Made by a program: the position numbers. DNA of 56,793 bases, the filler included, from Sandaracinaceae bacterium (GTDB lineage Bacteria > Myxococcota_A > Polyangia > Polyangiales > JADJQN01): assembly GCA_947483975.1 (NCBI GenBank). It is 2 parts of 2 records of this genome, joined end to end, with 100 filler letters (N's around TTAATTAATTAA, not from the genome) between each part and the next. Parts side by side here need not be neighbours in the genome. Positions count along the whole stretch, not along the records: positions 1 to 28,586 come from CANKOL010000021.1; 1 more part is not named here. One strand, given 5' to 3'. Numbering within the stretch: the stretch's first letter is position 1; every line of letters begins with the position of its first letter. Below are positions 6,001 through 12,000 of the stretch, one piece after another.

Positions 6001-9000
6001 CACCGGCTGGCTCGCCGAGATCTGCGATCGCATCGCGGACGGTCACGCGACGGAAGCCGACGTGGAGCTCCTCGTCGACGTCTCGAACAACATGATGGGC
6101 AACACGATCTGCGCGCTGGCCGACGGTACGGCGATGCCGATGCTCGCCTTCGTCCGGAAGTTCCGCGGCGAGTTCCTCGCGGCGGCGCGCGAAGGCGGCG
6201 TCAAGAACGGGCGCCTCGATCAAGCGGTCGTACCTCTACTTGGCGGGAGGGCAGCGTGAGCGGAGCCGGCGCATACGTTTTCTGGTTCGCGGCGTTCCTC
6301 GCCGTGCTGACCGCGGTGGGGACCGTGGCGATGCGGAGCGCGATCCGCGCGTCCGTCGCGCTGCTGTTCCACATCATCTCGCTGGCGGGGCTCTTCCTCG
6401 TGCTGCACGCGCAGCTGCTCGCGGCGATGCAGCTGATCGTCTACGCGGGCGCGGTCGTCGTGCTCTTCCTCTTCGTGATCATGGTGCTCGGGCCGACGCC
6501 CGATCGCAGCGCTGACCAGCGCGGGCTCCTGATTCGAGCCGCCGCGGGTGGGCTGATGGCGCTCGTCATGGGCGCCATCTCGTTCGCGCTGATCTCGTTC
6601 GCGCCTCCGATGCTCCCGGGCGTCACCGCTTGTCCTCCGGGCGCAGGCGCGGAGTGCGGGCAGTTCGGCGGCGTCGAGGCGCTCGGCGGCGTGCTCTACG
6701 GCTCGGCGGCGCTGCCCTTCGAGCTCGTGTCGGTGCTCCTCCTCGTCGCGGTGTTGGGCGCGATGGCGGTGGCCCGCGGGCACTCGTCCGAGGACCGCGA
6801 AGCACTCAAGGCCAAGAAGCTCGCGCAAGCGGGCGAGAAGTGAAGGCACGGAACTGATGGAACTCGGTCTCGGACACTTCATCGGTCTCGCGTCGCTCCT
6901 CTTCGGGATCGGCGCGGTCGGCTTCCTCGTGCGGCGCAACCTGCTCATCCAGCTGATGAGCATCGAGCTGATGCTCAACGCCGTGAACCTCACGCTCATC
7001 GCCATCAATCGATGGATGCCGGGCAACCACGCGGGGCAGGTCTTCGCGTTCTTCAACATCGCCATCGCAGCAGCCGGCGCCGCCGTCGGCCTCGCGATCG
7101 TCATCAGCGTCTTTCGCCTGAAGAAGTCGGTTCAGAGCGATTCGGTCGACCTGCTGAAGCACTGAGAGAGACTGACAGTGTTTGATCAAAACATGGACCT
7201 CGCCTTCGGCTGGGACTTCGGTCGCGCGCTGATCTGGATCGTGCTGCTCCCGCTCTTCGGGGCCCTCGTCAACGGCATCAGCGGACGCTGGGCGTCGCGC
7301 TCCCTCGTGCGCGCCATCGCGGTCGGCTCGGTCGCCGGCTCCTTCCTGCTCGCGCTCGCGTGCTTCGTGAAGCTCGTGATGCTCTCGGGGCACGGAGAGG
7401 GCGCCGAGGGGACGAACAAGATCGTCAACGTCGTCTACGACTGGTTCAGCGTCCGCGTCGGCGACGCGGTGATCCCGGTGCGCGTGGCGCTCCTGATGGA
7501 TCATCTGAGCGGCGTGATGACGCTGGTGGTGACGGGCATCGGCCTGCTCATCCACCTCTACGCCAGCTCGTACATGGAGGACGACCCCTCGTACGCGCGC
7601 TTCTTCACGTACCTGAACCTCTTCACGGCGAGCATGCTCATCCTCGTCCTCGCCTCGAACATGCCGCTCATGTTCGTCGGCTGGGAGGGCGTCGGCCTCT
7701 GTTCCTACCTGCTGATCGGCTTCTGGTGGGAGAACCCGACCTACGCCGCTGCCGGTAAGAAGGCGTTCATCGTCAACCGCATCGGTGACTTCGGTGTGCT
7801 GATCGGGATGTTGCTCCTCGTCGGCACGACGATGTCGTTCGAGTTCTCCGACATCAACGCCAACGCGACGAGCCTCCTCATCCCGCTGCGCCTCGACCAG
7901 ACGCACTCGATCGCGTGGCTCACGACCGCGACCGCCGCGTGCCTCTTCCTGTTCCTCGGCTGCTCCGGCAAGAGCGCGCAGCTTCCGCTCTACGTCTGGC
8001 TGCCTGACGCGATGGCTGGCCCCACGCCCGTCTCGGCGCTCATCCACGCGGCGACGATGGTGACGGCGGGCATCTACCTCGTCGCGCGCCTCTCCAACGT
8101 GTTCCTCCAGTCTCCGACGGCGATGGCGGTTATCGCGATCGTCGGCGCGTCGACGGCGCTCTTCGCGGCGTCCATCGCGCTCGTGCAGAACCAGATGAAG
8201 AAGATCCTGGCGTACTCCACCGTGAGTCAGCTCGGCTTCATGTTCGCGGGCGTCGGCGTCGGCGCGTTCGGCGGCGGCTTCTTCCACGTCTTCACGCACG
8301 CCTTCTTCAAGGCCTGTTTGTTCCTCGGCGCTGGCTCGGTGATGCACGCGGTGCACGCGCACGGCGACGCGGACCTGCGTGAGCTCGGCGGCATGAAGAA
8401 GTTCATGCCGGTCACGCGCTGGACGTTCCTGCTGAGCTGCTTCGCGATCGCGGGCTTCCCGCTGACGAGCGGCTTCTTCTCGAAGGACGACATCCTCCTC
8501 GGCGCGGCCTACATGGGCACCGGCCCCTGGGCGGCGTACCCGAGCTGGGTCGGCTGGGTCGTCTTCGCGATGCTCGCCATCGCGGCGTTCATGACCGCGT
8601 TCTATATGTTCCGCCTCTACATCCTCGCGTTCGAGGGTGAGTTCCGTGGCGGACCGAAGCACGGCGACGGGCACGACGCGCACGGCGACGACGCGCACGC
8701 TCACGCGCACGCGGATCCGCACGAGTCGCCCTGGGCGATGACCCTCCCGCTCGTCGTGCTCGCGTTCGGCGCGGTCACGGTCGGCTTCCTCGGCCTCCCG
8801 CACTGGCTCGGCCTCCCGAACGTCTGGGAGCATTGGCTCGAGCCGTCGCTCGCCGCGCTCCCGGTCACGGAAGGCGCGCATGTCTCGCTCGCCATCGGCG
8901 CCACCGCGATGGGCGTCGGTACCCTCGCTGGCCTCGGCGGCATCGGCCTCGCGTACCTCTGGTACATCAAGGAAAACGGCACCACGCCAGCGCGCATCGC

Positions 9001-12000
9001 GGCGTCCGTGCCGCGCCTGCACGCGCTGCTCATGGACAAGTGGCGCGTCGACGAATTCTACGGCGCGGCGCTGCTCCGCCCGATGGCTTGGCTGGCTCGC
9101 TTCGCCGCGAACTTCGACAAGCTGCTCGTCGATGGGCTGATCGCCAAGGCGACGTCCTCGCTCACGCTCCTCGGCGGCTGGGTCGTCACCCGCGCGCAGA
9201 CCGGCGTCGTCTACACCTACAGCGCGTTCATGGTCGTCGGTCTCGCCGGGGTGGCGTGGTGGTATCTCGTGCCCCACACCGGCCTCGAGTACGCAGTGCG
9301 CGGCACGCAGGTGAAGCTGCAGGCGGCGGCGGGGCTCGGCTACGAGTACCGCTTCGACGTGAACTCGGACGGCGAGTTCGAGACCGAGTGGTCTACGGAG
9401 CGAACGATCGAAGGCAGCTACGAGCCGAAGGACTTCGTCGGCGGCGCGATCGTCGTGGCGACGATGCGCCCAGGCACCCGCGAGCGCGAGCAGCTCCTCG
9501 AGGGCGGGCATGTGCTCGCGTTCGCGGCCGCAGATCTCGGCCCCGAGTGGCAAGCCGTCGCGCCCCCTGCCGCCAACGCGCCGCCCGGAACGCCGGGCAC
9601 GTCGGACGACACCCTGCCAGGCATGAGCTGGAGCCTTCCCGTGCGCGACATCTTCCTGCCGTACGCCCCGCGCGGAGGCGAGGCGCACTCGGCGACGCTC
9701 GAGCAAGCGCACGGCCTCCTCGAGCGGATTGTCGGGGGCGAGAGCGCGATCGACATCGCTCGGGCGCGCGCCACCAACGACGAGCAGCGGACCAAGGTCG
9801 GTCTCGTCGCAAACGAGGATGGCGTCGACGGGCACGTGAAGCTCGCCGATGGGACCGAGGTGACCTTCGAGGCCGGCGCCCACACCGCGCTCGTCGAGAC
9901 TTCGCGCGGCGTGCACGTCGTCGCGCTCGACCCGGGAGAGCTTGCGCTCCGACCCAACGGCGCGCGCGTGCGCGTCCGCGGCGCTGACGTCACGCAGGAG
10001 ACGCACCTTCGCCCGGGCGAGATCGCTCAGGTTGGCAATGCGCTCGTGCGCGTCGCTGCGGTCGTCCGCGGGACCGTCGAAGTGCGCAACGCCTTCGGTT
10101 ACACCGTGCGCGAATCGGTCGACGTGGTCGTGAGGCCGGACCGCCCCGCCGACGAGCCCGCTCCGAACGCCGTGCGAGGTGCGCAATGAGCCGCCATCTG
10201 CTCTCGGTGCTGCTGTTCCTGCCGCTGCTCGCGGCGCTCGTCGTGATGTTCACGCCTCGCCAGTATCTGCGCACGCTGCGCGGGTTCTCGGTGGGCGTGA
10301 TGCTCGTCGAGTTCTTGCTCAGCCTCCGCCTGCTGTTCGACCGGCACGTCGATGCCGTGGACTGGTCGAGCGCAAGCTACAAGTTCGTCGAGGCCCACTC
10401 CTGGGTCGAGAGCCTCGGCATCCAGTACAAGGTCGGGGTCGACGGCATCTCGCTCTGGCTGGTGCTCTTGACGACGGCGATGACGCCGATCGCGCTCTTT
10501 AGCTCGTGGCAGTCCGTCGACACCAAGATCAAAGAGTTCGCGATCGCGTTCCTGCTGCTCGAGTGCGGGATGATCGGCGCGTTCGTCTCGCTCGATCTCT
10601 TCCTGTTCTATGTGTTCTGGGAGCTGATGCTGGTGCCGATGTACCTGATCATCGGCATCTGGGGCGGCAAGGACCGCGTCTACGCCGCCGTGAAGTTCTT
10701 CATCTTCACGATGGTCGGCTCGGTGCTGATGCTCGTCGCGCTGCTCTATCTCGTCTCGCAGTACCAGCACCTCTCGGGACACTACAGCTTCGACCTCGGC
10801 GAGCTCGGGCGTGTACAGCTGCCAGCGAAGGCTCAGTACTTCTGCTTCGCGGCGTTCGCCCTCGCGTTCGCGGTGAAGGTGCCGATGTTCCCGTTCCACA
10901 CGTGGTTGCCCGACGCGCACGTGCAGGCGCCGACGGGCGGCTCCGTGATCCTCGCGGCGGTGCTGCTGAAGATGGGCACGTACGGCTTTCTGCGCTTCGC
11001 CATGCCCCTCTTCCCGGTGGCGAGTCACTTCCTCGGGCCGACCCTCGCGGTCCTCGCCGTCATCGGCATCGTCTACGGCTCCTACTGCGCCTGGGTGCAA
11101 AAGGACGTCAAGAAGCTCGTCGCCTACAGCTCCGTGGCCCACCTCGGCTTCGTGATGCTCGGGCTCTTCTCCCTGACGACGCAGGGAATCTCGGGCGCCA
11201 TCCTGCAGATGGTCTCGCATGGCGTGTCCACCGGCGCGTTGTTCCTTCTCGTCGGCATCATCTACGAGCGCCGACACACGCGCGAGCTCGACGCCTTCGG
11301 CGGTCTCGCGAAGGTGATGCCGTTCTACGCGGTCATCTTCATCATCGTCACCATGAGCTCGGTGGGCCTCCCGGGGACCAACGGCTTCGTCGGCGAGTTC
11401 ATGATCCTGAGCGGCGCGTTCTCGAGCGAGGTGCTGCCCTTCGCCCGCGTGTTCACCGCGTTCGCGGCGACGGGCGTCGTGCTCGCTGCCGTCTACATGC
11501 TGCACGCGGTGCTCAAGATGTTCTGGGGCCCGCTCGACAAGGCCGAGAATCGCGGCCTGCCGGATCTCACGCGCCGCGAGGTCTACGCGCTCGCCCCGCT
11601 CGTGGTGCTGATCTTCTGGATTGGGCTCTATCCGAGCATGTTCCTGTCGCGGATGGAGCCGACCGTGAACGCCTTCATCGAGGGCTATGTGCAGAAGCGT
11701 AACGCGACCGTCGACCTCGAGGAGGCTCGGCTCGGGGCCGCGCCGGCGGGTGCCGGAGCAGAGGCTGCACAAGCCGACATTCGCGTGGTCGCTCCCGGAG
11801 GTGCGCAGTGACGGCCGCCGACATGCTCTATCTCGCTCCGCTGCTCTGCCTAGTCGCTGGCGGGCTGGCGATCATGCTCGTCGACGCGTTTGCGCCGAAG
11901 GGCCCCAACGCGCAGCGCGCGGAGCTTGCGACGCTGACGACGGTCGTGCTGGTCGCGGCCGCAGGCCTCTCCGTGGCGCTCTGGATGAAGGGCTCGACGC

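Follow-up and report, generated by a model that had tools for sequence, protein, structure and literature searches.

A PKD-like domain fused to complex I subunit NuoL in Polyangia and enlarged by nested FHA-like and parvulin-like domains

The window analysed here is a stretch of 56,793 nucleotides (filler included) from a Sandaracinaceae bacterium (GCA_947483975.1). It contains, all on the plus strand, a cluster of complex I genes comprised of nuoE (4338..4868; PF01257, E 3.5e-51), nuoF (4706..6259 as the longest ORF, the true start probably lying further in; PF01512, PF10589), nuoJ (6256..6843; PF00499), nuoK (6857..7165; PF00420), nuoL (7193-10189), nuoM (10186..11811; PF00361), the start of which overlaps the nuoL stop, and nuoN (11808..13304; PF00361). 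The nuoA, C, D, G, H, and I genes are found on contig C266 of the same genome. A promoter scan revealed no sigma-70 site, and terminator-like sites were present only within genes. As an earlier note on this DNA had stated, nuoL is a single open frame of 998 aa in which NuoL is fused to an additional C-terminal region. Its core (residues 1-693; 7193..9271), which includes the amphipathic helix HL and the last membrane helix (TM16, about 9206-9271), matched NF005141 and TIGR01974 above their cut-offs. The NF005141 match (656.9 bits, cut-off 556) extends over residues 13-693 and profile positions 5-611 of 615, corresponding to a full NuoL up to the last membrane helix. Likewise, the core is complete to helix 16 when compared with NuoL, Nqo12, and ND5 (PDB 3rko_L, 4he8_L; NuoL/Nqo12/NdhF matches over residues 12-687), but the window protein runs 305 aa past this helix, whereas the best PDB matches stop at or before residue 687. 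Based upon this whole-protein match and the presence of other nuo genes alongside, including those of the N-module, the protein is assigned as NuoL, a subunit that would take part in proton pumping of the assembled complex. The NuoL of a second nuo operon in the same genome (G000:C3) has no tail.

An origin of the tail by misassembly or read-through was rejected, because four further proteins in the databases, 993-1007 aa long, have this tail in full (65-71% identity). In agreement with the earlier note, no match for the whole tail was found in Pfam or NCBIfam. A search by Atlas features also found nothing for the whole tail, and Foldseek yielded only weak multi-Ig matches in the PDB and none at E<=0.001 among viral structures, a result accounted for by a nested arrangement of domains that defeats sequential alignment. 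The description of the tail as all-beta and without a family could not be sustained, nor could the idea of a single novel fold, as the AlphaFold model (pLDDT 88.6) resolves three known folds, one inside another. The outermost is a PKD-like Ig domain, whose first part (residues about 694-748; 9272..9436) carries P-H, a G-x-G-Y loop, and a D-x-N-x-D-G loop, and whose F and G strands, the N-A-F-G hairpin included, follow at residues about 959-983 (10067..10141) in the model and the structure match. Over model range 1..290 it matched PKD1 of PrtV (4l9d) with Z 8.9 and rmsd 2.1 (76/82 aligned), with FnIII and other Ig folds scoring within 1 Z. The E-F loop of this domain holds an FHA-like sandwich, the two parts of which (residues about 749-812, 9437..9628, and about 915-958, 9935..10066) matched the FHA domain 3gqs over model range 56..265 with Z 9.6 and rmsd 2.2 (92/101 aligned). 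Within the sandwich, in turn, lies a SurA/PpiD-type parvulin (rotamase)-like domain with three helices (beta-alpha-alpha-alpha-beta; residues about 813-914, 9629..9934), which matched SurA P1 (2pv1) with Z 8.5 (94/103 aligned); Z scores of 8-11 are middling, and the rmsd of this match is 3.8. In a relative without the parvulin domain the FHA-like fold reached Z 10.9, and FHA domains were the top rows in two independent models.

Pfam PKD gave no match for the split domain of the window NuoL. However, two uninterrupted homologous tails exceeded the Pfam cut-offs (L104: PKD_4 28.7 against 27, PKD 23.6 against 23.5; L117: PKD_4 28.1, PKD 26.1); most other homologous tails were below cut-off or had no score. 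The Atlas features of one PKD-only tail also pointed to PKD clusters (0.91). The NuoL tails have in common with PKD domains (PF00801, PF18911) the fold and a W/F-D-x-x-x-D-G loop, but the NuoL domain is single-copy, located on a respiratory subunit, split by inserts, and aromatic at the tip of the F-G hairpin. The motifs reported earlier, G-Y-E-Y-R-W-D-x3-DG and V-R-N-A-F-G, are indeed present, except that F replaces W in the window NuoL. Among PKD-only tails the near-invariant columns are P1, G22, G24, Y25, W29, N66, and F68. The hairpin tip is F in 47/51 of these tails and F, L, or W in all 51, whereas F or Y occupied this position in 52/241 repeats of unrelated multi-Ig proteins, aligned with a profile favouring F. 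The D-x-D-x-D-G type loop raises the question of whether the domain could be a periplasmic calcium sensor, or a calcium-stabilised module, that tunes complex I via helix 16. Although this loop is present in 37/39 FHA-type tails and shows weak EF-hand matches (E about 0.2-0.3), it is kept in only 27/51 PKD-only tails and is also an insertion site, and we regard this explanation as quite improbable. The large inserts that were read map to the A-B, C-C', and E-F loops; in the Ig topology, these are found at the end of the domain away from the N-terminus. In some rows the lengths of the B-C and F-G loops differ by several residues.

PKD-bearing NuoL was identified in 141/150 other Polyangiales genomes and also in 39/41 genomes of a sister order. 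A distribution limited to Polyangiales is thus rejected, and the reported absence from other Myxococcota was wrong for the PKD part. A Polyangiales-only tail profile matched 0/14 same-class genomes, though PKD tails exist there, which probably explains the zero obtained earlier outside Polyangiales. The length of about 200 aa ascribed to most tails is likewise that of an FHA-bearing subclade: families f11, f16, and f17 (55/150 sampled genomes) did not match the window tail and, where read, have tails made up of PKD alone, its core being about 85 aa long. One tail match (G012) lay by chance in a non-coding frame and was removed from the count. Other lineages carry ferredoxin-like, cysteine-rich, or second FHA-like modules in the same PKD loops, and one order without PKD has retained a short peptide that is conserved, 6/12 of those read showing an F-G, L-G, or W-G turn that resembles the hairpin. 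In a tree based upon the NuoL core alone (46 rows, quick search), the FHA-bearing rows formed one group (22 rows, SH-aLRT 96), while the PKD-only Polyangiales (97) and the PKD forms of other orders (97) branched apart from it and the parvulin pair was nested (99). This tree omits 22/68 rows, and the FHA form of family f21 is therefore unplaced. In a first tree, which included a wrong-frame row (L028) and a long-branch row (L034), support for the FHA group was 82. The FHA insert is thus the mark of one Polyangiales subclade, and we infer with fair confidence that the gains occurred in the order PKD, FHA-like, and parvulin. These results support an outer appendage built of known folds that has been lengthened lineage by lineage through inserted domains.

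Helix 16 anchors helix HL, which is located on the cytoplasmic side (PMC3274701, in part). The 12 residues that precede helix 16 are basic, those after it are acidic, and no further membrane helix was found in the tail of the window NuoL. Cysteine pairs in 11/11 f16 tails and a 10-Cys insert in G123 suggest disulfides. With the support of the charge bias and the cysteine pairs, we strongly infer a periplasmic location. The earlier note's proposal of an undescribed appendage, probably periplasmic, is therefore supported, but the outer PKD domain of this appendage is common to other orders of the class. The opposite possibility, that the tail is cytoplasmic and places complex I under Ser/Thr kinase control by way of its FHA domain, could draw upon the 31 FHA matches in this genome and upon the normal role of FHA domains as cytoplasmic phosphothreonine readers (PMC6468809, in part). 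It conflicts with the single helix after HL, the outward charge bias, and the cysteine pairs, and also with the motifs of the insert: G-R-x-W was present in 4/39 tails, S-x-x-H in 1/39, and D-x-G-S-x-N-G in none of 39, whereas the G-R, S-x-x-H, and N-G loop motifs were present in 18/18, 17/18, and 18/18 FHA domains of the same genome, these being pattern counts with patterns that differ somewhat between tails and controls. This explanation was rejected as highly improbable, and the FHA-like insert has lost the textbook phosphothreonine motif.

The affinity of the insert to FHA domains is nevertheless visible in its C-terminal half, where a profile of 24 inserts aligned with 18 true FHA domains of the genome (hhalign probability 81%, E 1.2e-5, 48 columns). 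Compared with FHA domains (PF00498; CT664, 3gqs), the insert has the same beta-sandwich fold (Z 9.6-10.9) but sits within another domain. No tail scanned matched PF00498, the NuoL locus was absent from the own-genome FHA search, and a PDB sequence search with the insert profile gave nothing real. In two tails the last FHA strands reach a hydropathy of 1.9-2.0; from the models, these are read as beta strands, not helices.

The parvulin insert was found in 2/151 genomes, solely in the genus of the window. Pfam Rotamase (PF00639) scored it below cut-off (15.3 against 21.7 bits, E 0.04, positions 10-95 of 97), and it is 31% identical over 85 aa to the PpiD-like Rotamase domain of another genome (G078). 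A PDB sequence search gave nothing real, comparison with four own-genome parvulins by hhalign was not significant (E 0.31), and a close donor was found for neither insert in this genome, which is 81% complete. Four weak matches of the insert were read; three were chance matches in non-coding frames and one was a true Rotamase. Inactive parvulin domains are known in PpiD and SurA (PMC6468809, PMC2956729, both in part). Like these, the insert keeps the fold and the second His (5/5), but it belongs to a complex I subunit, where it lies inside an FHA-like domain, and has Asp at the apparent first-His position in 5/5, in a column aligned by eye; it has thus probably lost one catalytic His. Within the genus, the parvulin insert and the rest of the tail are alike in identity (60-72%, against 85-88% for the core), and for this insert a real job fits this conservation better than a passenger role. 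TbPar42 of trypanosomes likewise unites an FHA domain with an inactive parvulin (PMC6468809, in part), but its domains are in tandem, its FHA binds a phosphopeptide, and neither PKD nor complex I is involved; the resemblance is likely a coincidence.

The explanation that we favour, with a probability of about one half, is that the PKD domain, fused at the helix-16 anchor, serves there as an accessory cap with far loops that tolerate passengers. In an ancestor of several Polyangia orders, PKD would have become joined to NuoL where helix 16 ends in the periplasm, and it would act there as a built-in accessory subunit. Helix 16 adjoins NuoN and NuoK, an interface at which NuoJ helix 4 is also found in bacteria (PMC8762328, PMC11522691, both in part), and E. 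coli complex I is fragile without helix 16, HL being its clamp (PMC3274701, in part). The membrane-near pole of PKD (P-H, the G-x-G-Y loop, and the aromatic-Gly F-G hairpin) is predicted to dock on the periplasmic side where NuoN, NuoK, and NuoJ meet, and would brace the clamp of HL and helix 16 by which the membrane arm is held together, with no part in the pumping chemistry. Extra stabilising structure at the same anchor is provided in mitochondria by NDUFA11 and other accessory subunits at ND5 helix 16 (PMC8762328, in part), but NDUFA11 is a separate four-helix membrane protein and no homology is claimed. The membrane-far loops would have been free to gain domains by lineage, FHA-like once in the Polyangiales subclade and then parvulin in the window's genus. 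As the FHA motif is lost and one parvulin His probably so, these inserts, which retain their folds, may be at most binding surfaces. It should be noted that such a tail is absent from most bacteria and from the second nuo operon, and bracing is therefore not a general requirement; by eye, no matching Polyangia-specific surface is evident on NuoN.

Near-neutral accretion, in which a periplasmic C-terminus tolerates any compact domain, PKD is kept only because losing half of it would do harm, and the inserts are mere passengers, would fit the variety of inserts, the lost functional motifs, and the one order without PKD. We consider it unlikely, since stopping cleanly after helix 16 is easy and often seen elsewhere (20/20 NuoLs read outside the class end there), yet occurs in no main-operon Polyangiales NuoL read, and there is almost no variation at the Gly and aromatic positions of the surface. 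Somewhat better placed, though well behind the cap, is the possibility that the tail is a periplasmic platform to which something other than complex I docks, be it a second respiratory complex, a protein of the envelope, or unfolded clients, with PKD as stalk, the FHA-like domain as repurposed binding module, and the parvulin as tethered holdase. The FHA-like fold is kept in at least 39 tails read despite 19-41% identity, more modules were added at the same far pole, and the parvulin resembles a PpiD-like foldase domain of a kind known in inactive form. However, the added modules vary by lineage and PKD-only forms are common, the FHA insert has only one invariant column of about 100, no partner gene lies within this nuo cluster, and the chaperone activity of PpiD resides outside its parvulin domain (PMC2956729, in part). 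More speculative still is that Polyangia complex I possesses a modular periplasmic arm recruiting outside partners, with the FHA fold as a phospho-independent binding module and, in the window's genus, a foldase-derived domain attached to the pump; respiration might then have a physical link to the handling of envelope proteins, or to a respiratory supercomplex specific to the lineage.

No description of such an add-on, the role of which is likely structural, was found for complex I; known bacterial add-ons are mostly on the cytoplasmic arm, the reported periplasmic extras being loops and hairpins (PMC11522691, PMC8762328, both in part). A class-wide folded domain on the helix 16 end offers a naturally occurring case in which to test HL as a clamp and makes Polyangiaceae, Sandaracinaceae, and their relatives a cryo-EM target. 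The three-level nesting, the gains of which a single tree places in order, clearly exemplifies how domains are inserted into an essential enzyme, and it indicates that the NuoL C-terminus tolerates large periplasmic fusions; an FHA fold in the periplasm would be unusual. Lastly, the helix 4-5 loop of nuoJ in this cluster encodes a cysteine pair, which is present in 7/34 NuoJ rows, all from FHA-bearing lineages.

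The gene for NuoL (window 7193-10189, + strand) consists of a single frame of 998 aa within a cluster of the order nuoE-F-J-K-L-M-N, and nuoA, C, D, G, H, and I of the same genome (G000) are found on its contig C266. The protein matched the NuoL model NF005141 over residues 13-693 (656.9 bits, cut-off 556). Since this match extends to position 611 of the model's 615, the core is intact up to and including helix 16, the last membrane helix. The tail of 305 aa that follows showed, as a whole, no match to any Pfam or NCBIfam family, and its entire length was shared, at 65-71%, by four further proteins in the databases (993-1007 aa).

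A model of the tail was constructed with AlphaFold2 from a 33-row alignment (mean pLDDT 88.6, pTM 0.78) and compared with 48,161 PDB representatives in a full structural search. Three families were retrieved, on nested ranges of the model: PKD1 of PrtV, an Ig-like domain (1..290, Z 8.9, rmsd 2.1, 76/82 aligned), FHA domains, whose chains occupied all of ranks 1-5 (56..265, best Z 9.6, rmsd 2.2, 92/101), and the parvulin domain P1 of SurA (120..223, Z 8.5, rmsd 3.8, 94/103). As these Z values are middling, each match was also tested by sequence. For PKD, the insert-free tails of two relatives (L104 and L117) scored above the Pfam cut-offs, a profile of PKD-only tails (i.e., those without the FHA-like insert) retrieved multi-PKD proteins from 1.84 billion representatives, and the Atlas features of one such tail led to PKD clusters. 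A profile of 24 FHA-like inserts matched the 18 true FHA domains of G000 across its 48 C-terminal columns (probability 81%), and a second model, from a genome without the parvulin-like domain (G115), gave a Z of 10.9. The parvulin-like domain matched almost the full length of the Pfam Rotamase profile at E 0.04 and showed 26/85 identities (55.8 bits) to the true Rotamase domain in a PpiD-like protein of genome G078. In the predicted structure, the domain order of the tail is PKD[FHA-like[parvulin-like]].

With the window tail as the query, 86 of 150 other Polyangiales genomes were matched; the match in G012 was rejected as a chance frame. A PKD-only profile recovered 41 of the 64 genomes missed by this query. 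Fifteen of the remaining 23 matched a profile spanning the amphipathic helix HL to helix 16, and all 15 tails, once read, scored against the PKD profile; the other eight showed no match at all to this region. In total, a PKD-bearing NuoL was found in 141 of the 150 genomes, with the matches read in part and the unpublished genome G122 counted. The PKD-only form is present in families f11, f16, and f17 and, among others, in titled records of Polyangiaceae, Labilithrix, and Sorangium MAGs, and the FHA form in two titled records of Sandaracinaceae. Among 80 NuoL loci of titled records, 77 matched PKD and nine the FHA insert, and a parvulin insert in NuoL was present in 2 of 151 genomes, both from the source genus.

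The earlier note had regarded this extension as restricted to Polyangiales, which our survey of NuoL tails within Myxococcota contradicts. In a sister order of the same class all 41 genomes matched, 39 of them extending into the PKD part, and PKD was also present in G354 (same class, outside Polyangiales), where it was read directly, and in the NuoL of G263, from another family of the class. In one further order of the class 16 of 31 genomes matched, none beyond helix 16, and the 12 tails read there (61-135 aa) shared a short conserved peptide and lacked PKD. At loci L182-L193 (family f28), the NuoL C-terminus is formed by a conserved peptide other than PKD (D-x-G-G/I-L-R-x-T-L-G, with a possible hairpin after it) and a stretch rich in Pro; G478 yielded a NuoL without a tail. 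Beyond the class, the profile matched 306 of 401 genomes of the phylum; among the matches listed (150 of 360), 74 places in other classes end at profile position ≤101 by hand count, and all 20 NuoLs from outside the class that were read directly stop directly past helix 16. The tail is a genuine variant of complex I found across the lineage, of wider range and better explained structure than first reported, and its proposed functions are putative.

In the open full-text literature we found no description of a periplasmic C-terminal extension of NuoL in myxobacteria or of periplasmic complex I accessory subunits in Myxococcota, and nothing on NuoL with a PKD domain, a NuoL extension in Polyangia or a periplasmic FHA domain. 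In its available portions, a phylogenomic survey of complex I across bacteria names no fusions other than those among NuoB, C, and D (PMC4453560), and the portions of two other papers contain nothing further on a NuoL tail (PMC8357420, PMC9035099). The NuoL-PKD architecture may already be in databases, InterPro architectures being outside the scope of our search.

The hydropathy maximum of the window tail is 1.22. The 12 residues ahead of helix 16 contain on average 1.58 K/R and 0.16 D/E (67 rows), and the 12 past it 0.59 K/R and 1.92 D/E (39 rows). This charge pattern suggests a periplasmic tail; the cysteine pairs point the same way, as do the kinds of module that PKD and parvulin represent, and helix HL is placed on the cytoplasmic side (PMC7419157, in part). 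In FHA domains, the residues of the characteristic motifs bind or support phosphothreonine (PMC6468809, in part). By simple patterns, four of 39 FHA-bearing tails contain G-R-x-W, one contains S-x-x-H and none D-x-G-S-x-N-G, as against 18, 17, and 18, respectively, of the 18 true FHA domains used as a control; FHA signalling by the tail in the cytoplasm is very improbable. The five parvulin inserts, aligned by eye, retain the second His and have Asp at the expected first-His position; isomerase activity is reported absent from the parvulins of PpiD and SurA P1 in the portions available (PMC6468809, PMC2956729).

The residues P1, G22, G24, Y25, W29, N66, and F68 are nearly invariant across the PKD-only tails, and the tip of the F-G hairpin is F, L or W in 51/51 rows, compared with F or Y in 52/241 unrelated repeats. 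In the Ig topology the B-C and F-G loops are neighbours of the N-terminus and should therefore face the membrane; the large inserts sit in the A-B, C-C', and E-F loops, which would point away from it. Helix 16 has NuoN and NuoK as neighbours, and helix 4 of NuoJ also lies at this interface (PMC8762328, PMC11522691, in part), and its loss results in a fragile enzyme (PMC3274701, in part). Based upon the conserved positions, the hairpin tip, the loop placement and the neighbours and fragility of helix 16, we favour over all rivals, with a probability of about one-half, a putative structural cap fused to NuoL, in which the pole of PKD with the B-C and F-G loops would lie against the membrane and the insert-bearing loops would face outward. 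Against this, most NuoLs do without such a cap and the parvulin is conserved within the genus (60-72%); a platform for a partner outside complex I is a possible, if doubtful, role for the tail, and that of a putative calcium sensor seems quite improbable. In NuoJ (window 6256-6843), the helix 4-5 loop contains a Cys-x7-Cys pair, seen in seven of the 34 rows; every one of the seven comes from an FHA-bearing lineage, and the pair is absent from both f9 rows. This restriction could be explained by kinship alone.

Other inserts were also observed. The C-C' loop of PKD in G115, G123, and the database protein P0008 contains a ferredoxin-like domain, which matched ribosomal S6-type folds at Z 8.6-9.0 and is of a widespread type, and G123 has an additional 10-Cys module at the parvulin site. 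By eye, and with no Pfam match, a second FHA-like unit appears in G028 and G007, and about 90 extra residues precede FHA in G042. In the f16 tails the insert is helical, and all 11 that were read include a cysteine pair in it. When the NuoL cores were placed on a tree with their tails removed (46 of 68 rows, from a quick search and rooted at the midpoint), the FHA-bearing rows formed one group (22 rows, SH-aLRT 96), within which the parvulin pair was nested. The simplest history is that PKD came earliest, the FHA-like domain was gained once, and other inserts were late and local; neutral accretion of these domains is an unlikely explanation of the tail. Two proteins in which NuoL-PKD runs into NuoM-like sequence (P0072 and P0076) contain scrambled stretches, and are apparently the outcome of frameshift error and not true fusions.

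A second nuo-like operon of G000 (contig C3, 23689-34140, + strand), adjoining a radical SAM-like gene, contains A, B/C, D, H, I, L, M, and N, and the part of it that was read showed no nuoE/F/G; its NuoL is tail-less, stopping directly past the last helix. NuoH of the main complex (L179, C266, 1030-2442, - strand) has about 75 extra residues past the first helix, whose two hydrophobic stretches may be extra membrane helices, and NuoM of Polyangia (window 10186-11811; L112-L131) extends about 30-60 aa beyond the usual last helix, frequently with a D-x-x-P-R/H-L motif. Immediately 3' of nuoN lies a gene for a FabH-like 3-oxoacyl-ACP synthase III (window 13070-14296); a probable lipoprotein with a carboxypeptidase-regulatory-like domain (window 15584-16450) is followed by a 2Fe-2S/FAD oxidoreductase subunit (window 16602-17936). 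The N runs and TTAATTAATTAA spacer at window 28587-28686 mark the junction of two contigs.
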